64,000 nucleotides of DNA, taken from Chiloscyllium plagiosum. Taxonomy: Eukaryota. Below, piece after piece: positions 10,229 to 63,861 of this stretch (positions are counted from its first letter, which is position 1; every line of letters begins with the position of its first letter). The stretch is taken from NCBI RefSeq assembly GCF_004010195.1, contig NC_057755.1, positions 9,029,306 through 9,093,305 of the forward strand, written 5' to 3'. The translations under genes were made by a program, and so were the position numbers. The notes beneath the pieces were generated by a model. That model had not been told where the DNA came from and did no database searches. It was given only the letters and a program-made list of their open reading frames with translations.

Positions 10229-11142
10229 TCACTTTTCCTTTCGCTTGAGCAATATCAGAAAAAATGAACAAGGGAATGCTAACATTTCCTTCAGTTCTTC
10301 CCTAAATTTCCTTTGTGTGGCTGTATAAATACACACGTTTGTGCATGAACTCAAATACATGAGCATGTAGCCCGTTTCAGTGGCAATGTAGGCAGGAGCT
10401 GCATAATCACCCCGATAATGTGCAGTGTTTGTCATCCTCGTAGATAAAAAGCTCACAGCTGCTGTCAGCCAAAGGAGAATAAAACTCCCTGATATAGTGA
10501 AGAGTAAAATAATGGACCTTCTTCGACTTTCCATCTCTGGGTCTCTTTGACTCTTATGAATGCTTCCACGGACAGCTCTGCGAGATCTATTGGCGATGAC
10601 AATACGCCTGATGGTCAAGCAGTTAAATGTGAATAGCAAAGGAAATGGAAGCCAAAGAACTAATATACTTTGTAACCAGGAGAATGCTGTACCCAACGGC
10701 GAAGTGAAGAAGTTCAATTTTGTGCGGCAACCCCACTGTAACTGATCAATTACTTGTTCAGGTTCATATGCAAACAAATAGGGTATGTTCTCCAGACAAA
10801 CCAGGGCAGTGGTGATCATTATAACTGCACCCGCTATCCTCACTCTGCAATATTTTGTTTTCAGTCTCTCACAACATATAAATACATATCGATCAAATGT
10901 GAACATGACCGTGAACCACACTGACATGTACAGGGTGACTGAGCTCATGTAATTAAGTAACTTACACACTCCAGTGTAGAAAAAGAACGAATGTGTAAAG
11001 TGATAACTGAAGATTCGAAACACAGTTATGTTGAAGATCATGACCAGAAAAGCTGCTGTTGCCATGGCCATCATGTAAGCAGAGGTACAAGTGGAAAGGC
11101 CGCAGTTTCCCTTGGAGAGAATGATCATTGTCGCCAAGTTTG
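10229..11142 (-). CDS. GPR139/GPR142-like class A GPCR, gene A, exon 2 (TM1 end to stop)
   Basis: Open 914-nt exon after acceptor ttacag; seven hydrophobic segments when joined to exon 1; SVWFTVMFTFDRY, ECL Cys pair (GVCK/WGCR), SGSFILLW, SSCTNVCIY...KFREEL. Confidence 0.93.
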
Positions 11143-12134
11143 CTGTAAGCCAATTTAATCAAAGAGAAAAAACAGAATCATTCAGAAAAAGAAATTCTAC
11201 AAACTTTGTGGTGAAATTCTGAAAAGTTTGCTACTCAAAAAAATAGTGCAATGCTATTTTTCATTAACTGTGTCAGAGTAATGGAAAGTGCATTATGGGA
11301 TAACAAATCATTGAATACTCAGAATGGAGAGACTGATACGTTGGCTTGTTTCCAACATCATCCAGTGAATTGCTTTCAACTATTTCAAAGTGAATGGTAG
11401 GAGTTGTCCTCTCATAGGTTAGGTTACTTTCAGATATGTGAACTGACAGCCAAATGAAATCACCGCAGGAACATTAAAATGCTTAGTGCCTCGGAAAATT
11501 GAGCCCAATGGTTCCTAAAAACGACTCTTTGAATCAGCAGGGCAATATTAGACACAAGGTATATCGCTCAAACAAAAGACTAAACAATTTGTTAACAATG
11601 TATTAACTGAAGCAGAGCAATTTTAAGCAGCAAAGTAATCGATCTAATGGCGAAGTTTTAACACCAATCCTAATTAGAGCCAGTAGTCTGGTACCAAGAG
11701 AAAAAGACCAACAGGCAAATTGAGGACCAAATGAATAAGAGAAACACATTAATTATGATTTACTGGTCATGTCGCTTTAGCAGTTTCGACAATCTGCATC
11801 ACCACTGACACAACAGATTGCAGATTTCTTGGTTTCAAATGACTCTGACGCATGCAGAAAACTTACTGCCGGCTCTATAGAATATTCATTTGATTCTTAT
11901 ATCCGAGATTGCATACTCTGAAATTTAAATATGTTGGTAATAAGAGGATAATCAAGGAGCAAACAGAACTTTGTGCTGTATCTTTAAAATGCACAATCGT
12001 TCTGTTCCAAATGCAGCCCAAAGACTATTTCATTCTCTGGGCCCTACTTCAATAACAAGAAAGCAGAGATTATGAAAATACAATCTCATGTGTTCGGATC
12101 AAATGAATATTCTTTGAAGCCTGCTGTGGAAAGG

Positions 12135-12610
12135 CTCAAAAGGAATTTACAGGGATGCTGCTAAGGTTTCAGAGTTTAAACTGTAGAGAGAGGATGAATA
12201 GAATAGGACTATTTTCCCTGGGGCATCACAGGTTGAGGGTGATCTTATAGAAGTCAATGAAATCCTGAGGGCTATAGATCGTGTAAATACCCAAGGTCAT
12301 TTCCCCATGGCGGTGATGGGGAAGGTATCCAAAAGGTATGGGCTTAGGGTGAGAGGGGAAAAAAAAGGGACTCAAGGGACAACTGCTTCACACAGAGGGT
12401 GTTACATGTACGGCATGAGCTGCGATGTGAAGTGGTTGTGGTTGGACCAATTTTAACTTTAACTGGCATCAGGATGTGCATGTAAATAGGAAGGTTGGGA
12501 GGGGATATGGTCCAATGTGGGCAAATAGGACCAAATTGATTTAGAATATCTGGTCAGCATGGATGACTCAGGCAGAAGCTTTCGTTCTATGCTGTCCAGT
12601 TCTATGCTTC
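12135..12610 (+). mobile_element. CR1 3' fragment in the gene A intron (shared with gene B intron 60410-60875)
   Basis: CR1 3' end signature; inverted match to the paralogous intron. Confidence 0.65.
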
Positions 12611-13339
12611 CGTGAGTAGGTGGCGAATGTTTTGGCAGTTATAAGTACGAAGAGGTGAATTTCTATGGAAATAAAAAAAAAACGCCTGATTTGAGAGAGA
12701 CCTCTTTTGTCAACATGATGGAGCTAGTCTTTGATAAGATGTTGTCAATTGCAAATTGAAACACTATCAGGGAATATAAAATATGCAAAATGCCAACTAT
12801 CAAAGTTAAGTTTCACTTTACCTTTCCAAATTGTAGTATCAATAGATCCTTGAACGCTACGGATTTTGAATATACCTCCCTAGAACCCTTGCTTTATCTC
12901 CTATAAATGATGTATTAATTTGATTGCACGACATAACCACGACATTCTTCCAAAGACCATCAAAAACAAATGCATCCATTCCATCTCTCTCACGCTATGT
13001 AGCCGGCTCTCATGAACTACATAGTTATCTATTCAGTTCTCGAATTAAAACAGGCAGCGAAGAGTGGTACAAAACAAATTGATTGAATTACCCCAAAGCC
13101 ATACACATTTTAACAATGATGAAGAGGAAGTTGGGTGGATGCATCACTGACATTGGCGGGATATGTTGACCAAGTGATTTGCAAGTTACCTCAGTTAATT
13201 GGTACGGGCACGGAGATCAAGTGCAAGCAGCTTACATTCAACGTGTGTCAGGCATTACGTCTGCCTCAGCTGGACTATTGCGTTCACTGAGACCTAATGT
13301 CCATTCAGAAGGGTGTGAAGCTACTGAGGAGATTAGATC

Positions 13340-13860
13340 TTAGAAAATAAGAAGGAGGAGCGCAGGGAGGCCATTCAGCCCTTCGATCCTGTTCAAGAAT
13401 TTGATATCAACGTGGCTGATTTCAGCTCGATTTCACTTTGTAGCCTACTGTACACAGCCCTGCAGCACATTCCTCATTACAAACTTTTCGATCCCATTCT
13501 TAAATTTATTTATTATGCCTGTATCTACCACACAATGTGGTTTTGAATTACACAGATTCACGGCTCTTTGAGGGAAGTAAGCCCTTCTCATCTCTGTTTT
13601 AAATCTGCTTCCCTTCAGTTTAAAAAGGCAAACTGTCTTCTCGAATGTGCCAGAGAGAAAATATCCAGTCGACATCTATTCTGCTGATTCTGTTTAGCTT
13701 CCGATATACCCCAGTTAGTTCTCTCCACAATCTCCTAAATTCCGGAGAGTTTTGCCTGAAAGTGTTCAGTTTCTCTTCTGAAGAAAAAAAAACAGGAGTG
13801 GCTCTAATACAAGTACACATCTTCTCAAGTAAGAGGCGTGAAATGTCAAGCAGTGCTCTA
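13340..13860 (-). mobile_element. CR1 3' fragment in the gene A intron (shared with 57930-58480)
   Basis: ORF 13445-13675 KTEMRRAYFPQRAVNLCNS matches ORF 58016-58378. Confidence 0.7.
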
Positions 13861-14185
13861 TGTGCAGACTCTCTAATGCCTTGCCTATTTTCAGCGTGAC
13901 TTCCCTATATTATGCTTCATTCGTTTCGCAATCAGTGATACTTTTCCATTTGATTTATTGACTTCCTGCTCTAACTACAAAATGGAGGTCACCAATTCAT
14001 TGAAGAATGCAATCCAATTTGAACTATTGCATCACCTCCTCCTGCCCCTATTTCCTGCGTGTCTCTGCGATCTTCACTGACCACAGTGTTAGAAAATGTC
14101 AAAAGTATAGCAGTGTGTTAGACATCCCTTTCTGCGCTGTGACAATTCAATGATTTGGTGAAACAATAGAATATTACTGACTTAC

Positions 14186-14255
14186 CCGGAATGCCGAAGG
14201 CTGCTAGAATCGGATAGTAAATTATCTTTACCTGGACAATGTTTGGCTGCACCAT
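14186..14255 (-). CDS. GPR139-like GPCR gene A, exon 1 (MVQPNIVQVKIIYYPILAAFGIP)
   Basis: ATG at 14255, 70 nt, phase-1 donor G|gtaagt joins in frame to CA AAC TTG (…GIPANLATM); paralogous exon at 57542. Confidence 0.9.
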
Positions 14256-14318
14256 TCTCTGAAGAATGTTGGAAATCGATGGCTTTATTGGAACGCTTTT
14301 GAGGGCAGTTAATAAACC

Positions 14319-14327
14319 TTATTTATA
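14319..14327 (-). promoter_or_regulatory. TATA box of gene A
   Basis: TATAAATAA 64-72 nt upstream of the ATG; identical in gene B. Confidence 0.7.
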
Positions 14328-14358
14328 GCGCAATATGTCCCTCGTTGAAAAACAAACG

Positions 14359-14367
14359 TGATGCAAC
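14359..14367. promoter_or_regulatory. Candidate C/EBP-ATF (amino-acid response) element TGATGCAAC
   Basis: Lies in a block of about 22 bp (CGTGATGCAACGTTGTCAGAAT) identical in the gene B promoter, about 30-40 bp upstream of the TATA box. Confidence 0.45.
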
Positions 14368-15735
14368 GTTGTCAGAATAACGTTCACTGAAGAGACTTTT
14401 TGCCACTCCATTTCACTCATGCGTCCATGAGGAGATGACACAGCTGAATAACAGATGCACCTTTCACCAATGTGTTATAATTGGAAGAGCATCACAGACC
14501 GAAAGAGATTGGCACACCCCACCACAGGAATGGGAATTAGTCATTGTTCTCTGTCATTTTCTTAGCTTCCTTTTAGTTCTTGTGAACGGGAGAAATCATG
14601 AAGCATTTTTTGACTCTTTTTTTCGACTGTGGCACAGTCAGGTTTGATTTGTCACGAATAAATTTATCATTGTTTGGGGGAAACATCATTTGACATGGCA
14701 TGCATCCATTTTTGTAGATTCATGACTACTTTTCCGAGAGACAGCTGTGGGGGCAGTGCCCTTGTGTATTTATACGTCTGAAATAGATAGATTATTGATC
14801 AGATGGGGGATCAAGGGTTGTGGGGAAAGGAGAGGAAGGTGGACATGAGGAGTTTCTAATCAGCGGTGATCGTATTGAATAGCAGAGCACGGCCCACCAA
14901 TGCTCCTATTTCTTATGGCCATCTGATATGAAATGTTCTTGAAGTGCTACTGCAACAAAACTAATTAAAACATGATAAGCCAATAAAGGCCGAGGAAGAT
15001 GGAAAAAACTTGCACAGATGAATGTTTGGCATAGAAAAGGCAGAAATTCTATCTTATGTATTGGAGATTTACTTTGACATTTTTTTCAGAGGCACGATGT
15101 TAATCAAATGTAAGATCAACATTCAAAATCAAATTAATCTTTTCTGGAGTAATTAACTGATCAAGCTCAACTTGAAACTTTTCAAGTCGGATATAATTAA
15201 ATAGTTTGGGAGAGACACAGAAACGATACATGTATATCAATGCATATTTTAATGTCGATTATATTTTACCAAACTGTTGGCAACATCTGATGTGATTCCC
15301 AAATTTATGTTGCACAACGTGCGAAATTATAATTCTAATAATATGGAGAGAAAAACGTGTTCAAATCAATTTTGAGATGAAAGGTCGTCGCTTTACCAAC
15401 GTCATAAATGTTGTTGGAGGTACAACTGAAATTGTTGGAAGGGCTAACATTGCGAACGTTGCATGTTTTAATACCTATTGAGCAAGTCATCCTTTTGTTG
15501 ACTGAGCAAAGACATCCGAAAATGACGAACCGTTGAACAGCTGGCAATGTCTTGGCTCTACCTTTACAAATGCTGCCAGACCTGCCAAGGTTCTCCAGCA
15601 ATCTCAGTGTTAGTTTCATTCATTTAGTATCTGCAGTTCTTTGTTTCATTTCATGTTTCCTTCCATTGTTGTGCCCAGGTGCTGGACTGAGGTTCTCAGC
15701 TCCAACGAAACACACAATTCTTTTCAGGAAAATAA

Positions 15736-15805
15736 ATGGACTGACTACCTAGTCTGGTGATAAACAAGATTTATTATTCAGTTTCTGCAATTATCGGTGT
15801 CCCTG
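15736..15805 (+). pseudogene. GPR139-like pseudogene psi1, exon 1
   Basis: ATG GAC TGA ... MD*LPSLVINKIYYSVSAIIGVP, exactly 70 nt, then G|gtgagt; stop at codon 3. Confidence 0.8.
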
Positions 15806-16914
15806 GTGAGTGAAAATTATTTTTCGTTTTCAATTGGGATAAATTGCCGTATCATGCTTTGGATAGAAGATCATGATCTCAGAAACGAATTCCACAAGTT
15901 CAGATGTTACTCAAAAGCCAGGAATAATCATGCATCCCAATTTCCTACTTATTCCATGAAGTGTTTAAGTTAAACACGTTTACTTTTCAAAAAATGGCAA
16001 GATTTTCAGAGGATGACAGACCTTGAGACCAGCCAGGCAATAAGCTTCTCCAGAACCAAACGCCAGAGTTTAAGGGTATAGGGTAAACTTTTTTTAGGAC
16101 TTTGCTAAGGCTAAATGCCTTAACCCAGAGAGTGCTGAACCAGTTGACTTTTATTTTGCCATAGGAACATGTTGAGGATAATGCATTAAATACTTTCCAT
16201 GAAGATGTAGGTGTAGTTCTGAGGAATACGGGGTAAAGAAAATATGATAAAGCTGTGGGAGAATATACTGAGTTGGATGATCATCCAGGAGCGTACTGAG
16301 TGTCGGAGCAGCCTCAACCAGCCGAATAGCAGGTTGTTGTTCCTTTTTACAATGTTTCTGTATTCCTAACTCAATAAAATGTGCTGAGAGTGTTCAAGAC
16401 TAATGATCATAAAGGCTTATTTTTGCCTCTGTCATAGCTGAAATGCGTAGAATTCATTCATATTGATATGGACATATGTTAGACCTAAATAGCTGTGCAC
16501 ATCTCAAATTACAGACAAGTTAGTGTTCATCGCTAATCGGTATGATGATTACTGTTTAATTTCTATAAACTTATTTTTCGAATGCAAGTTATTGGATGGC
16601 AGAATTACTCGCATTAATGCCTTTTCCCCCGCGTTCCTTTTAGCAGCCTCAGTTGCAGTTTATAATTCTTCAATTAGATTGCTCATATGTGACAGATCAT
16701 TCTCAAATCCGTGTGTCCTTTCTTGATAACTATCACAAATGTATCCATATGTCTGTGATTCAGTTTCCAGTTCTGTCGTGTACAGCAATTCATCCAAAGG
16801 CAATGTGAAAATTAAGTTCCTGAAGCAAGGCAGAACATTGTTACGCTCTTTACCAAGTGAGTGAGTCACATTCCATCATGAATTCCTGATATCTGTTCTG
16901 TCGCATCATTTTCT

Positions 16915-17100
16915 GAGAGGGAGTCAGCTATCTGGATGCCTCGTTATCGATGCAGAGTGATGCTAACAGTGTGGGTTCAAGTCCTGCGCTGACTGAAGTT
17001 ACCATGTATGATTCGCCTCCTCAAGCTCTCCCATTGCCTAAAGTGTGGTGACCCTCAGGGCCACCAGTCTTCTCTCCACAATGAGAGAGCAACACTGCAT
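16915..17100 (+). mobile_element. Second tRNA-derived SINE-like repeat
   Basis: B-box-like GGGTTCAAGTCC at ~16973; family not identified. Confidence 0.35.
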
Positions 17101-17779
17101 GGTCATGGTGCCTTAAGTTTTACTTGTCTAGTTTGATAAAGTCTAAAAATAGTTAGTTTGTAAGCCTACCATCTCAAACTACTTTGCCACCTTTGATAAT
17201 ATGTCTGCGTAAAACCCGATGCTTGTTTCTTTTTTTTCATTTGGTTTTATTCATTTGCATTGCTAATTTTTCTCTTTGTTCCATCTTAATTGATCCATTT
17301 TTGGTCTGCACCGTTTTCTCAATTAATTGAGGATTGCATCATTTTAAAGAAGTGGTCAAATTCTGTAAAAAGCTGGGAATTTGAAAATTCAATGATTTCA
17401 AAGCAAAATCAGATAACAGAACATTGTGATAGACGAAATGCTATGAACATTCAAAGCCATCCAAACATCAAATATATGAACGGTGTTCCCCGGCAGATTG
17501 CTTCTGCTGTAAAATAGGTTCATCGAATCATACAGTACAGTAGAGGTACTTTATCAGCACTGTATTATTAATGCTACACAAAATCTACACAAGCCTCACT
17601 TTTCCAGCAGAGGACAATAACTTTGAATGCAAAGACATTTCGGGATTAACTCTTTTTCAAAGGTCGTAAGGTTTCCCACATCAACCATCCTCCCAGCCAA
17701 TGTATTCCCGTATTCAATGTTCTTAGATTGAGGTGGACAAACTCTCATTTTTTATTGTCCACGTAGTTCAAACGTAGAG

Positions 17780-18870
17780 TATTGGTTTGAGTAGAGGACT
17801 GACTGATGGACAGAAAACAGAAGGTCGGGATAAATGGGTAGCTCTCTGAATACTGCAGAGTTCAATTCTTGGACCTCAAACATTTACCAGCTGCATAAAT
17901 GATCTGCAAGGAGGGACAGAGTGTAACATAATAAAATTTGAGGATGATACTGAAATAGGTGGAAATGCATGTTGCAATGAGCAAACAAAACAAGTTACAG
18001 CTGAATGTTGATGGGCTCGGGGAATGGGCCACAATCTTTCAGATGGAAGTTAATGCAGGTAAGTGCAAGGTTGTCCGTGTTGGCAAGGAATATAAAAGTG
18101 CAACGTATTATTTAATTGTCTAGCAGAGTCAAAGTGCATCGGTGAAAAGTGGTCTTGGTGTCTTTGTGCATGAAATCAAAATTGGGTCAGCAGGTGCAAC
18201 ACATAAAATATTTCGAAAAAAGCAAATGAAATCCTGGATTTTTTTTTGCCGAATGTACTGGATTATAAAGATAAAGAAGTATCGTTGCAATTATATATTG
18301 CGTTTGTGTGTCCACACCGTTGAAATATAGTGTCTAGTTTTTGTCTCCTAACTTGAGGAAGACCTTGGTTGCAGTGGAGGCAGCTGTGAGAAAATTCACC
18401 GCATTGATCCCAGGGATGAAACGGCTGTCAGGTGAGGAGTAGTGGAATAGCTTGGGTTTGCACTCGCTAGAGTTCAGAAGAATGAAGGGGAACTGATTGA
18501 AGTACACAAAATGCTGTCGGAGATTGATAGGGTGCACAACAAACAGATGATCCCACTTGTGGGACAATCCCAAAAATAGACGTTATTGATGTAGCGTGAG
18601 AATACGTAGGGTTCAAAACTGAGATGACGAGAAAGTACTGTTCTCAGTGAGTTGTGAATCTGTGGAAACCACTGCCCCAGAGTGCAGTGGAGGCTGAATC
18701 AATCAAAGCAGTCGAGAAAAAAAATGTTTCTGATGAAAAGCAGGATAAAGGGCTATAGGAGAGTGACTGATGTGGAGACAAGGACAATATCAGCCATGAT
18801 AATGCTAAGTGGTGGAGCAGACTTAAAAGGTTGAATTGACTTCTCCCACGACTAATTCCTCTGTTTCTCT
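17780..18870 (+). mobile_element. Old CR1-type LINE RT and 3' fragment
   Basis: IKFEDDTEIGG, QMEVNAGKCKVVRVG remnants and CR1 3' end. Confidence 0.7.
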
Positions 18871-18984
18871 GTTCATGATTTGTACATCAGGATAAAAACA
18901 ACAGCCTAATAATACCATACCATCACACAGCTCGTAATGACTGAGCAACTCCTTCCAGACAGAAAATTCCAGATTCGAGTATAT

Positions 18985-19720
18985 CATTCAAAATTATCCA
19001 TATCTGCAAGCTGAATTTGTTCTCAATTTGTCTGTTTGGTTCACAGTTGCCTTCACATTTGAACGCTTTATCGTTCTTTGTTGCACACAGTATAAAACAA
19101 GACATCGCACTGTGAGAACTTCAGTAACAGAAATAACCATGAGCTGTGTCTGCATCTGCTTCAAGGACATTCCCATGAATGTTGAACTTGGATCTGAATA
19201 AATAGTTAACAAGATGCACTGGAACAGCCTGCACAGTGTATCTTTCCTTTCTTCAGACCCAGGAATAATATATCACTGGTTTTACAGAATCACAACAGTT
19301 TGGCCGACAATCAAACCGATACTAGTGAGCAGCAGATCCCGCAGAGGACTTCAGAGTCAGCTGACTGATCCTCAGCATGATCCGGAAATGGAGAAGAGAA
19401 AGAAACCTATTATTTCACTGTTCGCCATTTCAGGTTGTTTTCTACTCCTGTGGCTGACAGCTTTTGTGAGTTTTGTAACTACCATGCTTACAAATACAGC
19501 TTACTCCTCTGATGACCGTAGAAATCAAGGATACATTGCAATGGAAACTGAAGCAATGTTGTGGTGTTTGAGCTCCTGTTCAAATGCGTGCATTTGCGCA
19601 GCGACCCTGAGGAAATTCATGGAAGTGTTGATGGATCTACTGAAAGCTCTCTCTGAATTCATTATTACATTCGATAACAACAGTAAGAACTGTAGGCTGA
19701 ACTGCCTGCAAGAAGATTGA
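18985..19720 (+). pseudogene. GPR139-like pseudogene psi1, exon 2 remnant (TM3-TM7)
   Basis: LSVWFTVAFTFERFIVLCC..YKTR, in-frame TAA at 19199, TM5 partly deleted, then DPEMEKRKK..LFAISGCFLLLWLTA..LSSCSNACI..RKF. Confidence 0.88.
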
Positions 19721-19884
19721 AATTCAGCAATGATGACATTTTGAATTAAATTTTGCCTGTGACAATATTGTTTGGAAACATCGATGAAGTATCATGCAAT
19801 TTGCATTCTGGAGTCTTGCATCAAGAAGGGGAGACATGGTTGAAATTTAATTTGCAAATTGTTTCTTGGGTTGGGACTGAGCAC

Positions 19885-19983
19885 GAAAGTTGAAAAATGT
19901 GGTGCTAGAAAAACACAGCAGGCCAGGCAGCATCCGAGGAGCAGGAGGATCGACGTTTCGGGCATAAGCCCTTCTTCAGGAAT
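19885..19983 (-). mobile_element. Solo PLE-terminus insert of about 100 bp carrying a hammerhead motif
   Basis: Same family as the 59636 and 60968 elements; TGAGCAC at both flanks (19878-19884, 19983-19989). Confidence 0.75.
19948..19983 (-). ncRNA. Minimal type-I hammerhead ribozyme motif, core intact
   Basis: Reverse complement ATTC-CTGAAGA-A-GGGC TTAT GCCC-GAAA-CGTC-GATC: perfect stem II, palindromic ACGU stem III, GUC cleavage triplet. Confidence 0.75.
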
Positions 19984-20779
19984 GAGCACACTGAGAAGTC
20001 TATTGTGAACATACATTTTTATTAGGCATCATCAAAACCCCTGAATTAAAGAGGTGGATTTTAATGGTTTAGTGCTTTCAATGAAAACTTGTTGCTTATA
20101 AACAGGAGTACAGCAGCACAGAAAGAAATAAAATTGCAAAAGGACGTCAGTTAGTACATGTTTCAGAAATTAGAGACGAGGAGGATTATAATCTTAAACC
20201 AAGTATCCTTTGATGATGCCGAGAATTGAGTTTAATGAGCTCTTGTATTTGCATTTATGTTGTAGTAAGAGTGAGTTTCGTTTGTACATTGTGGTAGGCT
20301 TCCCAAGGGCAAATGAACCTGAAGGCATGTATTTAAAACTACAAAGGAATTCTGCAGAAGGTAGCCTATTTCAGTTGTGCCAGTGCGAGTCACAATGCAG
20401 ACACAGCAACAAATCTTCGCTGAAGGTTTTATGTTTACAATAACGTTGCTGTCATAAGAATAACCTGTCTCCTTCATGAAGCTTGCAAGGAGTTGTGACA
20501 ACTGGCAGAACTCTTCTGTCCTGCAAGGTTGCTGACAACGCCCGCGAAGTCGCGGTTGGCAGTGTCACTACTCCCGTCATGACACTCTCTCAGCTGCCGC
20601 AGGAAGGAGCTGCAGTTCACAGTATCAATGGGTTGGGGGCGAGGGCTGGTATGAGAGTCCACCGCTGAATGAGGGCCTGGAAGAGAGATTGATGAGGACG
20701 ATCGTCACGCCACCTTTGGAATATTGATGGCAGTTTACATCCCTCCTCTGGGAAGGATTATGTGAAACTCTAAAGGATT

Positions 20780-21255
20780 CAGAAAAGATTTACAAAGATG
20801 TTGCCAGTGTTGGAGTGTTTGAGCTACAGAGAGAGGCTGAACCGGCTGGTACTGTTTTCTCTGGAGCGTCGGAGGCTGAGAGGTGACCTTATGGAGGTTT
20901 ATAAAATCATGAGGGGCATGGATAGGATAAATAGACAAAGTAATTTCCGAGTGCTGGGCAAGTCCAGAAATAGAGGGCATGAGTTGAGGGTGAGAGGAAA
21001 AAGATAGAAAAAGGGCCGAAGGGCAACATTTCCATGCAGAGAGTGGTGGGTTTGCACAATAAGGAGCCAGAAGAAGTGGTGGAGGCTGGTACAATTATAA
21101 AATTTAAAAGGCATCTGGACGGGTATATGAAGAGGACGGATTTAGAGAGATATGCGTCAAGTGATGGTGAATGGGAATGGATTCGTTTTGGATATCTCAT
21201 CGGCATGTACGAGTTGGACTGAAATGTGTGTTCCTGTGCTGTACAGCTCTGTGAC
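20780..21255 (+). mobile_element. CR1 3' fragment
   Basis: SYRERLNRLVLFSLERRRLRGDLMEVYKIMRGMDR. Confidence 0.85.
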
Positions 21256-21649
21256 TGCAGCGTTCAATTTGGGGGGAGCCTCCCAGGAGGGTATCCAGTG
21301 TGGCCCGAAGAGCATCGGATCCCCAGATCGGTGCAGCTTCCCTTTCAGAAAATAGCGACCCGAAGTCGGTCATGGGAGCACTAGATGTGAAACCAAATCC
21401 AGAGCCTTTCGGCTGTGGGAACGGCTGTGAGGAGCTGTTTCAGATACCCACACCTGTGCTCGAAAAACCCACAGAGAAAAGGAGAAAAAGGAGAAAAAGG
21501 AAGGAATGTTGTTCGGGTGGCGATGGAAGGGGAGCAGGGCAGTAGGATGGTGCATTGGTGAGGAGCCCCTATCCCATCCACTCTTTTGAAAAGGCATTAC
21601 TCCTCGGGATCACAGGAACCGAGAGAGTCTGGTTCTACCGACAGTTTGG

Positions 21650-21948
21650 AGGAAGTGAGGACTGCAGATGATGGAGATCAGAGTCAAAAAGTGTAGTGCT
21701 GGAAAACCACAACCTGCCAGGCAGCATCCGAGGAGCAGGAGAGTCGGTGTTTCGACTTAATCTAGATTCACCACATTCCTGATGAAGGGCTTATGCTTGA
21801 GGAGCAGGAGAGTCGACGTTTCGTGTGTAAGCTCTTCATCAGGAATGTGGTGAATCCTGATAAATAGATTAAGTCGAAACACCGAATCTCCTGCTCCTCG
21901 GATGCTGCCTCTCCAGCTGTGATTTTCCAGCACTCCACTTCTTGACTC
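21650..21948. mobile_element. Palindromic PLE-terminus element with several hammerhead-like cores
   Basis: 21681-21796 is the reverse complement of about 21826-21948; CTGATGA at 21779 (+), CTGATGA...GAAACGTC at 21811-21846 (-), CTGATAA...GAAACACC at 21857-21883 (+). Confidence 0.8.
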
Positions 21949-30720: not shown

Positions 30721-30721
30721 A

Positions 30722-44998: not shown

Positions 44999-45002
44999 AA
45001 AA

Positions 45003-53700: not shown

Positions 53701-55325
53701 TATCGGCCTCCATCACCACCCCTGGTAATGTGTTCCAGTTCATTGTTAACATCTTTGTAAAAACTAGTGCGCCTGCCAACTCCTTTTCATTTTCTCCCAC
53801 TCACCTGAATGCATGCCACCCCGTATTAGAAATTTCTGCTCTGGGAAAAAGAAGAAATTCAGATTGTCAATCCTATCTATGAATGTTCCCACATTCCACA
53901 ATGTGAGTCTGTAATGACGTCCTCTGGAGACAGACACAGGATGCGACAGCGAATGTTCCCTTCGTTGACTGGTAATTCCTGGGAGTAGAGAAACTGTGCC
54001 ATGTTCTTCGCAGCTTGCAACACATCATCGATGAGGATGAGCAACTAACCAAGGTCTGCCCGACGCCCCCACTTCTCACCTTTAACTAACTCCCAAAACG
54101 TGAACACTCCATGGTTTGCAGCAAACTGTCCAGCCTTCAGGACAACATCGAATACAACACCATACAACCCTATAATAGCAAGCACTGCAAGGTATATCGG
54201 AATGTCGACATGGCTACTACTATAACTCTTGGGGACACAACCCATGACGGGGCAGCAAGTAATCATGAGACTCGGCCAGTGTTGTCTCACTCATAAGATG
54301 CAGGCAATGATGCCTGGGGCATGGTACTTGGGCAAGAGTAAGCAGTCACTATGACAATGGATGAGTGGACACCACGCAACAGTCGCCAGAGAGCAATCTC
54401 CTATCTCATTCTGGAACAGTTCAGAAGTAAAGGGCATTGAGTCGTGGATCTTTCACTAACCATTTTCCAAGGCGACTTCGGGATACACAACAATACAGAG
54501 TCACCGAGTATAGGCTGATAGCCATGTTTGATACCCATGATGATGGTCTTGAATGGAATCTTAGGTTAATGACTTATGACAGGTGGCCCCATTATACGAT
54601 ACACTCTTGCACATAAACCCACACACCAGAAAGATACGCACACAACCTTATACATGATCGCACTCGCACACTCACGTAGATGCTCTCTCATATGAATGCA
54701 ATTTCAGATGCACACAAACGTACATTCACATTCAATACCCACTCTCTGACAGACATATACTCTGTCATATTTGCACGATCACACTTTCAAGCACGCACAC
54801 ACGCACTCAGACTTTCTCTCCCTCTCTACCACACACATACTCTCACACACATTTACACACACAGGTGCACACCTACACTCTCACGTTCTCTCTCTCTCTC
54901 CCTCACACACATATAAATGCACGTACACACACATATACGTCTATGGTATGAATTTGCAAATTCAGATGAGCAGATGCATTTTTTTAAAAAACACACAATC
55001 TGTAGGCAGTCAGTCAATGTGACATCATATAATTTCATATTTTAGAAATACAACCAGTCTGACTCATATTTATAATACAGACAGATTCTAACCTCACAAC
55101 TTCAATGCATTGTCTGTACCGATATGTCACTTTTTTAACAAAAACATTTATCTCGCGAATGTGACTTGCAAATGCTTTGGGATTTACATATTAATGATTT
55201 GAAACATATAGCCCCATTCTAAATGATTAAGACTGAACAGCAATCTAGGTTTGTTCAATAGATTGCATCAGTTGTACAACAATCTTATCTGTTGTGTTTC
55301 TGTTCGCCAAGCTGGGAATTTGTTT

Positions 55326-55365
55326 GCAGACGTTTCGTCTCCTGTCTAGGTAACATCCTCAGTGC
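55326..55365 (-). ncRNA. Minimal type-I hammerhead ribozyme motif, core intact
   Basis: Reverse complement GCA-CTGAGGA-TGTTACCTAGACAGGAGAC-GAAA-CGTC-TGC; stem I GCA/TGC. Confidence 0.78.
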
Positions 55366-55715
55366 TTGGGAGCCTCCTGTGAAGCGCTTCTGTGATCTTT
55401 CCTCCGGCATTTGTAGTGGATTGAATCTGCCACTTCCGGTTGTTAGTTCCAGCTGTCCGTTGCAATGGTGGGTATATTGGGTCCAGGCCGATGTGCTTAT
55501 TGATTGAATCTGTGGTTGAGTGCCATGCTTCCAGGAATGGAGAACAGCCAGGGAAAGCCTAGAGGCATCGCATTCATCCACAGATTCAATCGGCCTGGAC
55601 CCAATATACCCACCATTGCAACGGACAGCTGGAACTAACAACCGGAAGTGGCAGATTCAATCCACTACAAAAGCCGGAGGAAAGATCACAGAAGCGCTTC
55701 ACAGGAGGCTTCCAA

Positions 55716-55755
55716 GCACTGAGGATGTCACCTAGACAGGGGATGAAACGTCTGC
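55716..55755 (+). ncRNA. Minimal type-I hammerhead ribozyme motif, core intact
   Basis: GCA-CTGAGGA-TGTCACCTAGACAGGGGAT-GAAA-CGTC-TGC; predicted cleavage after C55752. Confidence 0.78.
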
Positions 55756-56744
55756 AACACAAATTTCCAGCTCGGTGAACAGAACCACAACAATGAGCAC
55801 CCGAGCTACAAATCTTCTCACAAACTTTGAACAATTTTATATTTTAGTAGGAATGCTGTGCCCTATGATCCTGCCCCTCCAGCGAGGTGATGAAGAAGCA
55901 GTTCTCCAAAGGCTTGTACTTCCAAATAACCATGTTGGACTCTACCCTGATTTTGTGTATTTTTTTAAACGTTGTCCACCCCAGCCCAATCCCAGCATCT
56001 TCACGACATCAAATTTCCCCTCAGCCTCTGCTGCTCAGAAGAAAACAACTCGAGTTCTTCTAGCCTCTCTTTTCAGCTCACACCGTCTATCCAGGCAGAA
56101 TTCTGATAAACCACTTCTGCATCCTCTCCAAAGTTTCCAGATTCTTCTTGTAATGCTGTGAGCAGACTTTAACGCAAAGCTGTCAGTGTGGCCAAACAAA
56201 CGTTTACTAAAAATGCAACACAGCATGTTGTGTCCTCTCCTCAATTCCCCGACCAATAAAGACAAGCATGCCACATGCCCTCTTTACCAGCCAATCACCT
56301 TGCATGGCCACTTTCATATAAGATCTCTCTGTACATCAGTGTTGTTCCGGGTCCTGTCATTAGCTGTATACTTTTCCTTAACATTTGATCTCCCAAAGTA
56401 ACAATTAGTAAGTTCCCTGTGCGTGCTATACCTAGGTACTAGTTACTGCGACTCATTTCCAAGACATCCAAATCCTTCTGCACTGAAACACTCAGATGTT
56501 TCTCTTCATTTCGATAATAATTTGCCTTTCCCTTCCTCCAATTAAAATGGACATCCTCTCAATTATCTGTGATAAAGATAATCTGCTAATTTTTGCCCTA
56601 TTATCCATAACGACTTTGTAAATTTTTAAATTCTTCACTACATATGACGTCCATAACGTATTATTGTGTAATCTGCAAATTTATTGTGGTGTGGATGACG
56701 CCTCATGCTCGGAGGTGCCTGGTTTAGTTGAAGGGGACTATGGT

Positions 56745-56952
56745 GTTCTCAGTCCAATGCCTTGTTTTATACTTTGTATAGCAGATAACTACAAAGCGGT
56801 CAAAAGTGAAGGCAAATTTGAACTAAACAGACAAATCAACAAAAACGCCAGTTATGAATAAATTTAGCTTACAGGTATGTGCAGGACAGGATGACATTGG
56901 GAAATGATAACTGAGCATATGATGCCAGAATACGTTAATGATCATTAATACA
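56745..56952 (-). pseudogene. GPR139-like pseudogene psi6 fragment (TM2-TM3), mirror copy of psi1
   Basis: VLMIINVFWHHMLSYHFPM..TCKLNLFITGVFVDLSV*FKFAFTFDRFVVICYTKYKTRH. Confidence 0.85.
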
Positions 56953-57413
56953 TTAACCCTTGATTCCCCTCCTAATCAATAATATATTTCAGACTTAATG
57001 CAAACAAGGACACAGCCACCGCAGCTGTCTCTATGAAAAGTAGTGACGAATACATAACAATAAGTGTATGCCATGCATGCTCTAGTAATGTGAAAGGAAG
57101 TTTCCCCCAATCAAAGATCAATTTGCTCGTGACAAATCAAAACTGTCCATGTTACTGTCGAAATCAACGAGACAAACAACGCTTAATTATTTCACTCGTT
57201 AAACAGAACTGAAAGGAAGCCAAAGAATTGACAGAGAACAATGCCTTATCCCTGTTCATGTTTGGGGCGTGGGGGGTGGGGGGAATGGGTGCACCAACCA
57301 CCTTCGTTTATTTTGTTGAAAGTGTATCTGTTGTTTAGCTGTGCCATCTCCCCTTGGACACAAAAGTGAAATGGAGCGGCAAAAGTCTCTTCTGTGAACA
57401 CTATTCTGACAAC

Positions 57414-57422
57414 GTTGCATCA
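57414..57422. promoter_or_regulatory. Candidate C/EBP-ATF element GTTGCATCA, gene B
   Basis: Reverse complement of the gene A element at the equivalent position. Confidence 0.45.
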
Positions 57423-57459
57423 CGATTATTTTTTTCCCTCAACGAGGGACACATTGTTC

Positions 57460-57468
57460 TATAAATAA
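57460..57468 (+). promoter_or_regulatory. TATA box of gene B
   Basis: TATAAATAA about 75-80 nt upstream of the ATG; conserved with gene A. Confidence 0.7.
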
Positions 57469-57541
57469 GGTCTATTAATTGCTCTCAAATACGTTCCAAT
57501 GAAGCCATCAATCTTGGTACATTTCCAACAATCTTCAGAGA

Positions 57542-57611
57542 ATGGTGCAGCCAATAATTGTCCAGTTAAAAATAATTTACTACCCGATTCTAGCAGCCTT
57601 TGGCATTCCTG
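57542..57611 (+). CDS. GPR139-like GPCR gene B, exon 1 (MVQPIIVQLKIIYYPILAAFGIP)
   Basis: ATG at 57542, 70 nt, donor G|gtaagt; in frame with exon 2. Confidence 0.9.
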
Positions 57612-59635
57612 GTAAGTCAGTAATATTCTATTGTTTCACACGATCATTGTATTGTTACAGCGCAGAAAGGGATGTCTAACCCCCTGCTATGCTTTTTGAC
57701 AGTTTCAAACACTGCGGTCAATGAAGATCGCTGAGACACATAGAAAGTAGGGGCAGGAGGAGGTTATTTAGTCCTTCAAATTGGATTGCATTCGTAAATG
57801 AATTGGTGACCTCCAATTTGTAGTTAGACCAGGGAGTCAATAAAGTAACGAGAAAGTTACCACTTACTTATAAAAGAATGATGCATAATATAGAGAGGGC
57901 ACGCTGCAAATATACAAGGCATTAGAGAGTCTGCACAAGGAGCATTGTTTAACATTTAGTGCCCCTTACCTGAGAAGATGTATTCTTATATTGCAGTCAG
58001 ACCTGGTTCATTCGATTGATGCTAGAAATGAAGGTTTTGACTTTCGAAGAGAAACTGAACACTTTAAGCCATTACTCTCTGGAATTTAGAAGGCTGTGTA
58101 GAGAACTAACTGTGGTATATCGGAAGCTAAAAAGAGCCAGCAGAGTAGATGTCGTCTGGATACTTACTTTTTGGCACATCTGGAAGAGATTTTGCCTTTT
58201 TAGTCCGAGGGGAAGCAGAATTAAAACAGAGATGAGAAGGACCTACTTCCCTCAAAGGGCCGTAAATCTGTGTAATTCACAACACCATTGTATGGTAAAT
58301 GTTGAGAAAGTAAATAAATGTAAGCAAGGAATAGAACATTTTGTAATGATTAATGTGCTGCTGGGCTGTGGAGAATAGGCCACCAAGTGAGACCGAGATG
58401 AAATTAGTCATCATGACATCAAGTTCTGGAACAGGATGGAAGGACTGAATGGCCTCCCCGCTCCTCGGTCTTATTTTGTACATTCTAATCTCGTCAGTAG
58501 TTTCACATCTTACTGAATGCATGGTAGCTCTGAGTGAACGCAATATTCCAGCTGAGGCAGAAGTAGTACTTTACACACATTGAACATAAACTGCTTGCAC
58601 ATGATCTACGTGTCCATAACAATTAACTGAAGTAATTTGCAAATCAGTCTGACAACCTATCCCGGCAATGTCAGTAACGCATCCACCCAGTTCCACTTCA
58701 TCAGTTTTCCATGGCAATACATTATTAAAATATGAAAGTATTGCAGTAATTCAATCAAATCATATAATCAATTCGCTGTCTTATTTAATTCGAGAATTTC
58801 ACTGAATAAATAATTGTGTAGTGCATGAGAGCCGGCTACATGAAGTAATTGACAGGGATAACATCATAGACACAGAATGGATACATTTGTTTTTGATGAT
58901 ACCTGTGAATGGATACTCTTTGTATGAATGTTGTGGTTATGTCGTACAATCAAAGTAGTACACCATTTATTGGAGATAAAGCAAGGGAACTGGGGGAGGG
59001 GGGGTGCATTTAAAATCTAAAATTCAAAAAGTTCAAGGATCTGTTGATGCTACTATTAGGAAATGGAGAATGAACCTTAACTTTGATAGTCGGCAATTTG
59101 AATCAAAAAGGTGAGATGATAATGCCCAGCCATCTTCCATTAGGACTGGAAACGAGTATTGTTTACAGGTTTGGGCAACCCAACTGATAGATGAAGTCAA
59201 GGATGCTTTAGTGAAGTTGTGAATTGCGTTACTTAATGAATCTAAGATCAAAGAAGAATGGGAGATGAATATTCGATTAATACAAGACCCTATGCAAATA
59301 TTGAACATGAAGAGGAGTTTTGATATAATCAGAAGAAGCCAATTATTTATGCTGACATTTAGAACAGGAAACATAAACCTATTAAAATTAGATTATTTTA
59401 CAATTCTGTTTTCCCATTGGACAGAGAGGACAAGTGTTAGTTTAAAATGAGGATCACCTTGTCTCAGATGACTGGAGGGTGTCTGAAGGAGAGTCCTTCA
59501 TCGCAACCTCAATCAAACACGCTGTTCACATCACTCAGCTGACATAAACCAAATGTCCCCTCAGTAAAGTTAACTGAATTCATTGCACGACAGGTTTTAC
59601 ATCTCTATCCCATTATTGCCTCTTAATTTCTTGTA

Positions 59636-60009
59636 CTGAAGAATGTGTTGCCAGAAAAGCGCAGCAGGTCAGGCAGCATCCAAGGGGCAGGAGAATCGAC
59701 GTTTCGGTCATAAGCCCTTCTACAGGAATGAGGAGGTGTGCCAAGCAGGCTAAGCAGGAGGTTAAAGTATATGTCCCCACCCCCTCTCCGGCCTATCACC
59801 CTCATCTTAATCTCCTTCCACGTATCGCATTCCCAACGCCCCTCCCCCAAGTCCGACCTCCCTACATTTTATCTTAGCCTTCCTGAAGAAGGCCTTATGC
59901 CCGAAAAGTCGATTATCCTGCTCCTTGGATGCTGCCTGACCTGCTGCGCTTTTCCAGCAACACATTTTTCAGCTCTGATCTCCAGCATCTGCAGTCCTCA
60001 CTTTCTCCT
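59636..60009. mobile_element. Palindromic-ended PLE-derived element, 374 bp, with 15-bp TSD and two hammerhead motifs
   Basis: TCTTAATTTCTTGTA at 59621-59635 and 60010-60024; inverted ends of about 90 bp; cores at 59694-59729 (-, CTGTAGA) and 59880-59914 (+, CTGAAGA..GAAAAGTC). Confidence 0.88.
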
Positions 60010-60967
60010 TCTTAATTTCTTGTAGCTGTGAAACAATACTGTGGTGTTGATTCTGATGTATTAATGCATCTTTTCACAAAAGGAGATCAGACTTACTGTT
60101 AGGCACTGGCCCTAATCAGACCATCACTCATTAATTGTTATTCCTCCACAATTAGGATAATGACTCATATATTTTCCATTATGTTGTTTACCCATATTTA
60201 GCAAACAATAGAAAATGAAATATTTGCATATTTTATACTCCGTGGTATGTTTCAATTTGTAATTGACAACATCTTCTCAAAGACTAGCTCCAACATGGTA
60301 ACAAAAAAGATCTCTCCCAGATCAGGCTTTTTTTTTGTGTTTACATAGAAATTAACAGCTCAGTACTTAGAACTACTAGAAAATTTTCTACCTACTCACA
60401 ACATCATAGAACTGGACAGCATGGAACCACACTTTTGGTCCATGTCGTCCATGCCGACCAGATATTCTAAATCAAATGAGTCCTATTTGCCAACATTTGG
60501 CCATATCCCTTATACAAACTTCTTACTTGCGTGCCCACCCAGATGCCATTTAAATTTATATTTGGACAAGTCTCCACCCCTTCATCTGGCAGCTCATGCC
60601 ATACATGTTACACGCTCTGTGAAAAACCTCCCCCTGAAGACGCTTTTAATTATTTCCCTCTCTCCCTGAGCCCATGCCCTCTGGATTGGTCACCAATACC
60701 CTGGAAAATGATGTTGGTTATTCACACAATGTATGCCCCTCATGATTTCATTGACTTCGATAAGGTCACCCCTCAACCGACGATGCCCCAGGAAACATGG
60801 TCTCATTCTATTCATCCTCACCCTATCACTCAAATTCTCCAACCTTGACAGAATCCCTATAAATCCCTTTTGAGCCTTTCCATAGCTGGGTCCAAAGAAT
60901 ATTAATTTGATTCTTAAAACTGAGATTCAAGTTTCTGTACCTATGCTTTCTTGTTATTGAAGTAGAG

Positions 60968-61990
60968 CTAAAAATGTGTTGCTGGAACAGAGCAGCAGGT
61001 CAGACAGCATCCAGGGAACAGGAGAATCGACATTTCGAGCATAAGCCCTTCTTCAGGAATGAGGAAATAGATGATGTGTGTGGAGGTACAGGTGAATTTG
61101 TGGCGGATATGGAAGTTTCCTTTGGAGCGTTGGAGGGAAGTGAGGGGGGAGGTGTGGGCGCAAGTCTTGCACCTCCTGCGGTTGCAGGGAAAGGTGCCGG
61201 GAGTGGAGGTTGGGTTGGTGGGGGGTGTGGATCTGACGAGGGAGTCGCGGAGGGAGTGGTCTTTACGGAACGCTGATGGGGAGGGGAGGGAAATATATCC
61301 TTGTTGGTGGGATCCGTTTGGAGGTGGCAGAAATAACGGCGGGTGATACGCTGTACATGGAGATTGGTGGGGTGGTAGGTGAGGACCAGTGGGGTTCTGT
61401 CCTGGTGACGGTTGGAGGGGCGGGGCTCAAGGGCAGAGGAGCGAGAAGTGGAAGAGATGCGGTGGAGGGCATCATGTACAGCCCTCCACCATCCATGTAC
61501 AGCGTATCATCCGCCGTCATTTCCGCTACCTCCAAACGGATCCCACCACCAAGGATATATTTCCCTCCCCTCCACTCAACACTTCAACTCCCCCTCCCAC
61601 TCCACCAAGGATATGCAGGTCTTTGGACTCCTCCATCGCCAGACCACAACAACATGACGGTTGGAGGAAGAGCGCCTCATCTTCCGCCTAGGAACCCTCC
61701 AACCACAAGGGATGAACTCGGATTTCACCAGTTTCCTCATTTCCCCTCCCCCCACCTTGTCTCAGTCAAATCCCTTGAACTTAGCACTGCCTTCCTAACC
61801 TGCAATCTTCTTCCTGACCTCTCCGCGCCCACCCCACTCTGACCTATCACCCTCACCTTGACCTCTTTCCACCTATCCCATTTCCAACGCCCTCCCCCAA
61901 GTCCCTCCTCCCTACCTTTTATCTTAGCCTGCCAGCAACACATTTTCAGCTCTGATCTCCAGCATCTGCAGACCTCACTTTCTCCTCGAA
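60968..61990. mobile_element. Rearranged PLE-derived element, 1023 bp, with 15-bp TSD and internal inversion
   Basis: GTTATTGAAGTAGAG at 60953-60967 and 61991-62005; PLE peptides HVQRIIRRHFRYLQTDPTTKDIFP on both strands and KDMQVFGLLHRQ..RLEEERLIFRLGTLQPQGMN. Confidence 0.9.
61025..61060 (-). ncRNA. Minimal type-I hammerhead ribozyme motif
   Basis: Reverse complement ATTC-CTGAAGA-A-GGGCTTATGCTC-GAAA-TGTC-GATT. Confidence 0.65.
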
Positions 61991-62947
61991 GTTATTGAAG
62001 TAGAGGCAAAGTACTGAATTAGTCTTTGGGCTGCATTTGCAGCAGGAGGATTGTTTCTATTAAAGCTACAGCACAAAGTTCTGTTTGCTCCTTGATTGTC
62101 CTCTTATTACCAACATCTTTAAATTTCAGAGAGCACGCTCTCAGTTCCACGAATCAATTGAATATTCTCTAGACTCGACAGTAAGTTTTCTGCATGCATC
62201 AGAGTAATCTGAAAACAAGAAAACTACAGTCTCGTCTGAGGGGGATGACAAAGATTGTAGAAGCAGCTACAGCAAATTGACCAGTAAATAACATTTAATG
62301 TGTTTCGCGTTTTCATTTATTCCTTAATGTGACTGTTTGTCATTCTGTCTTGGTGCCAAAGTACCAGCTCTAAATAAAGAAGATTGGTTGTGAAAACGCA
62401 GCCATTAGTTCGATTACTTCACTGCTGAAAATTATTCTGCTTTGGTTAGTACATTGTTAGCGAATTGTTTTGTTCCCATTCTGAGGGACAGACCTCATAT
62501 CGATATTAGTTATTCACAAAGTCTAGTTCTGATGATTTACAGAGTCTGTTTAGGAACCATTCAGAATACTTTTGCGAGGCACTGAGCATTTTAAAGTTCC
62601 TGCAGTTAAAATAACAATATAAGGATGCTGGTTTGATTTGGCTGTCAGTCATTGTATCTTACACAATGTAACCATTAATAATGGCACCTTCTACTATTCA
62701 CTTTGAAATAGTTGAAAGCAATTCACTGGGTGATGCGGGAAACAAGTCAACTTATCAGTCCCACCATTCTGAGTATTCAGTGATTTGTTATCCCTTAATG
62801 CACTTTCCATTACTCAGACACAGTTAATGAAAAATAGCATTTCACACTATTCTGAGTAGCAAACTTTTCACAAATTCACCACAAAGTTTGTAGACTTTCT
62901 TTTTCTGAAAGATTCTGTTTTATGACGTTGATTAATTTGGTTTTCAG

Positions 62948-63861
62948 CAAACTTGGCGACAATGATCATTCTCTCCAGGGGAAACTGTGGTCTTTCCAAT
63001 TGTACCACTGCCTACATGATGGCCATGGCAACAGCAGCTTTTCTGGTCATGATCTTCAATGTAACTGTCGTTCGAATTTTCAGTTATCACTTTACACATT
63101 CGTTCTTTTTCTACACTGGAGTTTGTAAGTTAATTAATTACATGAGCTCGGTTACCCTGTACATGTCAGTGTGGTTCACAGTCGCGTTCACGTTTGATCG
63201 GTATGTATCGATATGTTGTGAGAGGCTGAAAACAAAGTATTGCAGAGTAACGATAGCGGGTGCAGTTATGATGATCACCACTGCCCTGGTTTGTCTGGAG
63301 AACATACCCTTTTGGTTTGCATATGAGCCTGAACAAGTAATTGGTCATTTACGATGGGGTTGCCGCACAAAGTTGAACTTCTTCATTTCGCCATGGGGTA
63401 CAGCATTCTCCTGGTTACAAAGTATTTTAGTTCCTTGGCTTCCATTTTCTTTGCTACTCACATTTAATTGCTTGACAATCAGGCGTATTGTCGTCGCCAA
63501 TATATCTCGCAGAGCTGTCCGGGGACACAATAGTGAGAGTCAAAGAGACCCAGAGATGGAAGGTCGAAGGAGGTCCATTATTTTACTCTTCACGATATCG
63601 GGAAGTTTTATTCTTCTCTGGCTGACAGCAGCTGTGAGCTTTTTATCTACGAGGATGACAAACACTGCACATTATCGAGGTGATTATACAGCTCCTACCT
63701 ACATTGCCACTGAAACTGGCTACATGCTCATGTATTTGAGTTCATGCACTAACGTGTGTATTTATACAGCCACACAAAGGAAATTTAGGGAAGAACTGAA
63801 GGAAATGTTAGCATTCCCTTGGTCCTTTATTCTGATATTTGTCAATCGAAAGGAAAAGTGA
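62948..63861 (+). CDS. GPR139/GPR142-like class A GPCR, gene B, exon 2
   Basis: Acceptor ttttcag, 914-nt open exon; FDRY, SGSFILLW, SSCTNVCIY; 34 differences from gene A over the 302-aa ORF. Confidence 0.93.

Follow-up and report, generated by a model that had tools for sequence, protein, structure and literature searches.

The 64,000-nt stretch of Chiloscyllium plagiosum DNA analysed here (NCBI RefSeq assembly GCF_004010195.1, contig NC_057755.1, positions 9,029,306 to 9,093,305 of the forward strand; hereafter the window, numbered from its first letter) contains two intact genes, A and B, for a short two-exon G protein-coupled receptor (GPCR), together with six decayed relatives, C to H. 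Six-frame translation of the window yields two long receptor frames (10232-11158, minus strand, and 62932-63858, plus strand), and a scan for exons running from an ATG to a splice donor places matching 70-nt first exons at 14255-14186 and 57542-57611. GT-AG splicing of A and of B produces open frames of 327 amino acids, and a TATA-like box lies 70-80 nt above the ATG in both. A preliminary description of this DNA had claimed two intact 327-residue genes as well as first-exon copies of 70 nt with a phase-1 donor; the former are borne out, and the latter holds for A, B and a third copy at 15736, all of which are 70 nt long with a GT donor. The phase-1 intron falls directly before N1.50 (generic receptor numbering), a position presumably shared with human GPR139. 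No 26-bp satellite was seen upstream of the A or B promoters, none of the 21 rows from Tandem Repeats Finder lying there. The two genes comprise:

14186..14255, minus strand: gene A exon 1, 70 nt (23 codons plus 1 base), phase-1 GT donor
near 14327, minus strand: gene A TATA-like box
10229..11142, minus strand: gene A exon 2, the remainder of the 327-residue class A GPCR, including the stop
about 10041 and about 9962, minus strand: gene A AATAAA signals, about 190 and 270 nt beyond the stop
57542..57611, plus strand: gene B exon 1, 70 nt, with a TATA-like box upstream
62948..63861, plus strand: gene B exon 2, giving a 327-residue protein with 36 residues unlike A

Both products are class A (rhodopsin-like) GPCRs. 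Pfam PF00001 (7tm_1) is the only Pfam match of either protein, with scores of 67 and 66 bits against a cut-off of 30.5, and the predicted structure is a helical bundle (mean predicted local distance difference test score 66) that class A structures match at a template modelling score of about 0.65, in a fold search that did not discriminate among class A receptors. Gene A carries D107-R108-Y109, N292 and Y296 plus the cysteine pair joining transmembrane helix (TM) 3 to extracellular loop (ECL) 2, while A and B alike keep DRY, W6.48, S3.39, N7.49 and Y7.53. Their DNA is 92% identical, and the nonsynonymous and synonymous divergences (dN 0.054, dS 0.198, dN/dS 0.27) indicate that both are under purifying selection. 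The residues separating A from B are not enriched in the predicted pocket (3 of 36), and since the pocket differs at only 3 of its 27 positions, the ligands of A and B are probably similar to each other. Four cysteines on the cytoplasmic side of gene A (37, 42, 113 and 122, in intracellular loop (ICL) 1, the TM3 end and ICL2) are 89-99% conserved in 114 paralogues and could possibly form a lipidation or metal site. In gene A exon 2, one contig of run X5 carries an extra base at position 10657 (depth 8.6 of 81.6), reflecting either a paralogue or a broken allele.

The six remnants were scored with a profile of the receptor family, using the reversed window as a null. All score between 47.6 and 210.7 bits, compared with 5.7 bits for the best null match, and every one is broken by stops, frameshifts or truncation; the six decayed paralogues in both orientations listed by the preliminary description are thus all real. 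The exon-1 copies at 29712 and 43239 are additions to that list. The decayed loci are as follows:

15736..15805, plus strand: remnant C exon 1, 70 nt, GT donor, stop at codon 3
18990..19690 (profile match 19016-19678), plus strand: remnant C exon 2, TM3 to the end, without the TM1-2 part, with an internal stop and a TM5 deletion
22545..22766 (profile match 22560-22763), minus strand: remnant D, an ECL3-TM7-helix 8 fragment with one stop
27445..27669, minus strand: start of remnant E exon 2, TM1 to the start of TM3, then frameshift and truncation
29643..29712, minus strand: decayed exon-1 copy, likely that of remnant E, ATG and GT donor lost; score 27 (null best 13)
30724..31305 (profile match 30724-31302), minus strand: remnant F exon 2, TM1 to ICL3, with stops and frameshifts, ending at a repeat resembling a short interspersed element (SINE)
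41214..42093, minus strand: remnant G exon 2, nearly full length, with several stops and frameshifts
43170..43239, minus strand: decayed exon-1 copy, likely that of remnant G, ATG lost; score 18 (null best 13)
56742..56951, minus strand: remnant H, covering TM2-TM3, the mirror counterpart of C, cut short by a 2.9-kb deletion

Remnant D matches the A/B subfamily best, whereas other subfamilies fit C, E, F, G and H better. Accordingly, D and E are ruled out as two halves of one gene, as they match different subfamilies. A 6.3-bit family-profile match at 52.7-53.1 kb is at the level of noise.

Self-comparison of the window reveals much of the history of the cluster, in the form of collinear inverted blocks:

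10090-12056 against 64000-61991: 85% identical
12041-12789 against 60968-60223: 77%
12783-14819 against 59103-56955: 76%
18990-19115 against 56865-56747: 76%
22036-22404 against 56744-56398: 78%
22889-25004 against 53691-51609: 80%
10090..25111: left arm of an old segmental duplication in inverted orientation, its collinear blocks sharing 74-85% identity, extended by a 65% block to 26427
50812..64000: right arm of the same duplication, running to the window edge, a 65% block reaching 45945

It follows from these blocks that A and B are one gene duplicated together with its neighbourhood, and that A/B and C/H are mirror pairs of a single inverted segmental duplication. The match of remnant H ends at 56747 and is taken up again at 56744 by sequence corresponding to 22036, which marks the 2.9-kb deletion. 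Remnants E, F and G are older same-strand copies (about 65%). The proposal of an eight-locus cluster shaped by duplication and decay is therefore confirmed, except that these are not eight independent births, as the A/B and C/H pairs arose in one inverted duplication; the eight loci trace to six, and two survive. The inverted duplication spans at least 15 kb, and its arms have since been altered by differing deletions and repeat insertions. An assembly gap of 318 N lies inside the cluster at about 28.4-28.7 kb, flanked on either side by G-rich short-period repeats (17-23 bp; 28334-28843) within the remnant E intron. The right arm also contains decayed reverse transcriptase frames resembling a long interspersed element (LINE) at 48269-49681, the class being judged by eye, and other LINE- and SINE-like pieces are scattered across the window. 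Outside the arms, 842-4763 holds an inverted pair of decayed retroelement-like pieces of about 1.5 kb (72%) and a 290-bp tandem duplication at 2026-2606.

It is evident that A and B are members of a much larger family. A protein search with gene A exon 2 returned 640 of 1335 candidates at E<=0.001, and the best 120 of these 640 all come from 16 shark and ray species, most of them labelled "probable GPR139". Among the same 120, separate 90% clusters number 30 in Heterodontus, 27 in Pristiophorus and 25 in Heptranchias, while the nearest to gene A are C. plagiosum P0001 (74%) and Rhincodon P0002 and P0003 (72%). A profile search of 50%-identity representatives gave 133 matches at E<=1e-30, including many fragments and fused models; all 16 of the strong and deeper representatives looked up are chondrichthyan, including P0138 of the chimaera Callorhinchus milii. 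In a 42-protein tree, P0138 nests inside the family, so the expansion likely began before chimaeras and elasmobranchs split. Open frames recur in sharks, rays and this one chimaera. Within C. plagiosum itself, contigs of run X5 on exon 2 sum to depths of 92-392 in five bins, compared with 6-28 in unique intron bins, and several divergent contigs per exon 2 site point to further similar copies in the genome, although depth gives no copy number. Collectively, these sequence comparisons confirm that A and B belong to a chondrichthyan-wide expanded family of short two-exon class A GPCRs, and the earlier suggestion of a lineage-expanded family has held up, with hundreds of 90% clusters and the best 120 of 640 matches exclusively elasmobranch. 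Look-alike clusters also include nematode Srw-type receptors, which we note as a lead only.

The relationship of this family to GPR139 and GPR142 is real, yet distant. Among solved structures, the family profile matches human GPR139 best (PDB 7vug, 9m42; E 2e-17), which is likewise the best PDB match for the coelacanth protein P0210 and the amphioxus-like P0251, whereas gene A alone has 44 PDB matches at E<=0.001 that do not include human GPR139, which is reached only by the profile. On this measure, the family is GPR139/GPR142-related, with GPR139 as its nearest characterised receptor. Weaker representatives led to vertebrate and chordate relatives outside the sharks (salamanders, coelacanth, teleosts, a caecilian, lampreys and amphioxus), and searches with these mostly recovered one conserved group, 48-66% identical to coelacanth P0210 and present in fishes, amphibians, turtles, lizards, snakes and sharks. 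An amphioxus-seeded search for GPR139 and GPR142 gave 15 matches and no vertebrate GPR139. The conserved GPR139-like orphan (P0317, P0356, P0363, P0210) has invariant R6.51, E2.61, Y3.33 and Q6.55 and lacks W6.48; no mammal or bird occurs among the best 120 of its 165 matches, and two of its models are named after TMEM183A, perhaps a neighbour.

The main tree (42 proteins, mixture model, two long-branch invertebrate outgroups), which was accompanied by an 89-row quick tree, joins the chondrichthyan family to a salamander gene with support of 100/99 and keeps separate both the conserved GPR139-like group (100/99) and a lamprey-anchovy-caecilian group (100/99). Support for monophyly of the chondrichthyan proteins to the exclusion of the salamander gene is lower (91/69). 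A and B fall in a carpet-shark subclade (100/98) adjoining a Heterodontus gene, and the chordate group as a whole, which takes in amphioxus GPR139-like proteins, is supported at 100/99 against the two outgroups. Sharks also keep the conserved GPR139-like gene outside the expanded family, and forcing their copy into the family is rejected (approximately unbiased test, p-AU 2.6e-6). The phylogenetic check proposed in the preliminary description has thus been answered in part: the family is set apart from the conserved GPR139-like group, in a tree built without true GPR139 and GPR142. Salamanders (P0204, P0269, P0272) hold the closest non-shark relative found, and its pocket is more GPR139-like. 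Three GPR139/142-related sets have been described in coelacanth, gar and fishes (GPR210A, GPR210B and one unnamed; Rinne et al. 2019, PMC6504862), in a paper whose main text does not mention sharks. Our trees likewise give three vertebrate groups, to which the "GPR210"-type sets of that study likely correspond, the conserved GPR139-like group being likely one of those sets; this is a correspondence of groups and not of accessions. All 115 members of the conserved group have R6.51, which is missing from the expanded family as a characteristic residue.

F3x33, H5x43, W6x48 and N7x38 are needed for the response of GPR139 to Trp, Phe and surrogate agonists (PMC5430874), and a basic residue at 6x51 has been reported as critical for its activation (PMC8807744). 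When mapped through the alignment of the family profile with GPR139, the residues of A and B at F3x33, H5x43, W6x48, N7x38 and R6x51 are S, Q, W, Y and A (Ala251), i.e. one of the five GPR139 residues is kept. Among 187 family proteins, the number kept is none in 2, one in 103, two in 77, three in 4, four in 1 and five in 0, and position 6.51 is Arg or Lys in just 6 of 187. The salamander gene keeps F3.33, W6.48, K6.51 and N7.39, from which the ancestral pocket was probably GPR139-like. Position 2.50, the sodium site, where Asp is common in class A receptors but not obligatory, is Asp in 173 of 187 family members; A and B instead have Ala54, an Ala2.50 in common with five carpet-shark relatives whose frames are open (P0001-P0004, P0019), and this may alter activation in the carpet-shark subclade.

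An indication of function comes from the distribution of variability along the receptor. For this comparison, proteins covering at least 265 of the 327 profile positions (330 of 423, including A and B) were thinned at 80% identity, leaving 114 paralogues (mean identity 49%) and, as a control, 44 members of the conserved group (57%), which are orthologues of a related conserved gene rather than of family members. The 27 pocket positions are predicted ones, taken from generic numbering and fixed before the test. Among the paralogues, entropy in the pocket is 2.48 bits, compared with 1.47 at 181 other TM positions (nominal p 1.6e-7) and 2.02 at 46 non-pocket positions of the outer half (nominal p 0.002). 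The order is reversed in the orthologues of the conserved gene, with 0.70 bits in the pocket, 1.07 at other TM positions and 1.15 at outer-half non-pocket positions. Similarly, 114 paralogues have 108 distinct 8-residue pocket strings, whereas 115 orthologues of the conserved gene have 12, and position 6.51, which is only Arg in the conserved group, takes 18 different residues in the family. Conversely, R3.50, N5.58, W6.48, N7.49, Y7.53 and the ICL motifs are 97-100% fixed, and the positions fixed in at least 90% are mostly those of the cytoplasmic half and of activation motifs, along with the two cysteines of the C3.25-ECL2 pair. A variable pocket above a near-fixed cytoplasmic face fits a sensing repertoire with many ligands and one signalling output.

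Based upon these features, we propose that the cluster is the local part of a chondrichthyan-wide family turning over by duplication and decay, and that this family has about an even chance of being a sensor repertoire for many water-borne small molecules or short peptides from outside the body. An ancestral gene with a GPR139-like pocket would have been amplified before chimaeras split from sharks; its copies would then have lost the basic residue at 6.51, the anchor of the amino-acid ligand in GPR139, and drifted or been selected towards new pockets. With an N-terminus of about 10 residues before TM1, the ligand would presumably bind inside the helix bundle, beneath the disulfide-tied ECL2. 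Since hardly any variation is seen in ICL1, the end of TM3, ICL2, the ends of TM5 and TM6 or helix 8, all copies may well use one shared G-protein route. Olfactory receptor (OR), trace amine-associated receptor (TAAR), formyl-peptide receptor (FPR) and MRGPR repertoires likewise combine a short N-terminus and a variable pocket with a constant cytoplasmic face, thereby reading many ligands through one pathway. The cells involved would most likely be sensory or epithelial chemosensory ones of the nose, gill, skin or gut. The kin of GPR139 are neuropeptide and aromatic-ligand receptors, whose ligands include aromatic amino acids and peptides that end in aromatic residues (PMC8557429), and small water-soluble molecules or short peptides are for that reason the likeliest ligand class. 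We favour outside chemical sensing, at that even chance, on account of this ancestry and the very small known shark repertoires: the catshark has 2 OR, 6 OR-like, 3 V1R, 3 TAAR and 32 V2R genes (PMC11979771).

Several points weigh against this proposal. Within the 60-member subfamily around A and B, no significant excess remains at the pocket (1.59 vs 1.40 bits, p 0.30), and the entropy p values are in any case nominal, as the sequences are related. The preliminary suggestion of a small-molecule or peptide sensing repertoire therefore stands for the family at large, where predicted pockets are hypervariable in paralogues and conserved in the orthologues of a related gene, and lacks this support in the subfamily of A and B. 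The public models may include some pseudogenes, and many of the representatives lack a name or are imperfectly modelled. The absence of Asp2.50 from A and B could impair signalling. None of the 12.96 million records sampled from single-cell run X21 (about 2% of the run; tissue unstated) was an exon read, sparse receptors being easily missed; this run gave 20 reads on gene A intronic repeats only, and run X23, guessed to be RNA, likewise gave reads on intronic repeats only. In addition, the conclusion of PMC11979771, which does not mention GPR139 in the part consulted, is that V2Rs are the main receptors on which the shark nose relies, and the diversity of the pocket would suit immune sensing equally well.

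Indeed, the family could instead be an immune or barrier repertoire, with leukocyte or mast-cell-like receptors that detect peptides derived from microbes or from damage, comparable to FPRs or MRGPRs. The variable pocket, fixed cytoplasmic face, clustering and turnover all fit alike, and cartilaginous fishes are reported to be without MAS1 and its relatives (PMC8455134), which leaves that niche open. FPR2 and C3aR do appear among the fold matches, amongst many equally weak ones that discriminate nothing. We nevertheless consider this unlikely, as the family has no ancestry in the chemoattractant branch, given its best profile match to GPR139 and the neuropeptide and aromatic-ligand kin of that receptor (PMC8557429). 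A less probable scenario is that copy number is merely a by-product of segmental duplication in repeat-rich DNA, with few copies that matter and these reading one or a few endogenous ligands. Six of eight loci are dead, a single inverted duplication passively gave rise to both survivors, the cluster is full of LINE- and SINE-like sequence, and the sampled part of run X21 has no exon reads. However, this improbable outcome sits poorly with two duplicates that remained intact to a dS of 0.2 with a dN/dS of 0.27, with diversity concentrated at the pocket over a fixed cytoplasmic face, and with open frames that recur across sharks, rays and a chimaera.

Two further possibilities concern A and B themselves. 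The family may sense as proposed, with the carpet-shark subclade of A and B having become atypical receptors (scavengers, decoys or receptors with a shifted set-point) through the loss of Asp2.50. The Ala2.50 of A, B and five relatives, kept under purifying selection, would agree with this; on the other hand, DRY, W6.48, S3.39, N7.49 and Y7.53 are intact in both, and some signalling class A receptors do without Asp2.50, such that we rate the idea as improbable too, and marginally more so than a by-product of duplication. Finally, that A and B are GPR139 or GPR142 orthologues sensing L-Trp and L-Phe has next to no likelihood and is already contradicted. The public "probable GPR139" labels, the best structural match of the profile and the absence of P7.50 from the family and from GPR139 alike would speak for orthology, whereas A and B keep a single GPR139 pocket residue of five, just one or two of these are present in 180 of 187 members and the full set in none, a basic residue at 6.51 is rare, gene A alone misses GPR139 at E<=0.001 and each species has many paralogues. 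As judged from sequence, A and B are not GPR139 orthologues, in agreement with the earlier doubt that they are true GPR139, given that gene A alone does not reach that receptor and the GPR139 pocket residues are mostly replaced.

Cartilaginous fishes have been described as relatively poor in GPCRs (PMC8455134) and poor in olfactory receptors (PMC11979771), a picture that a large class A family with repertoire-like pockets would contradict. No description of a GPR139-like expansion in chondrichthyans was found in a literature search that lay outside subscription journals, only automatic "probable GPR139" labels, and PMC10620051, in the part consulted, and PMC13188829 supplements contain nothing on the expansion. 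The shark and ray family thus appears to be undescribed, even though its genes are catalogued under a misleading automatic name: the RefSeq and UniRef "probable G-protein coupled receptor 139" models of sharks and rays are the same family, and offer labels with no description of it. The present window is one ordinary cluster, and the significance lies at the level of the family, which is a candidate explanation of how sharks, whose known olfactory-type receptors number about 45, sense a wide range of chemicals (or microbes) and, if this is true, would represent a novel sensory or immune receptor family of vertebrates. The salamander gene should be a useful tool for finding the ancestral ligand.

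When compared to human GPR139 and GPR142, the family has the same class A fold, resembles them at the end of TM1 and in a TM3 motif, likewise lacks a proline at 7.50, and shares W6.48. It differs in comprising hundreds of clusters rather than one gene, in having two cysteines, C3.25 and one in ECL2 (96% each), which in GPR139 align with an Asp and with a shorter loop, and in mostly replacing P6.50 by Thr, unlike GPR139. Tentatively, and with a likelihood somewhat short of even, we suggest that a GPR139/142-related orphan was the source from which cartilaginous fishes built a large chemoreceptor repertoire of their own, independently of ORs, TAARs, V1Rs and V2Rs and in parallel to nematode srw, in which case the missing class A sensory repertoire of sharks would have been filed under one automatic label. 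Its parallels with ORs, TAARs, V1Rs, FPRs, MRGPRs and nematode srw include clusters, pseudogenes, compact genes, a short N-terminus, a variable pocket and a fixed cytoplasmic face. However, the shark family is not a member of any of these chemosensory or pattern-sensing repertoires by sequence, as its only Pfam match is 7tm_1, and it would have a separate origin in the branch of GPR139/142 and neuropeptide receptors.

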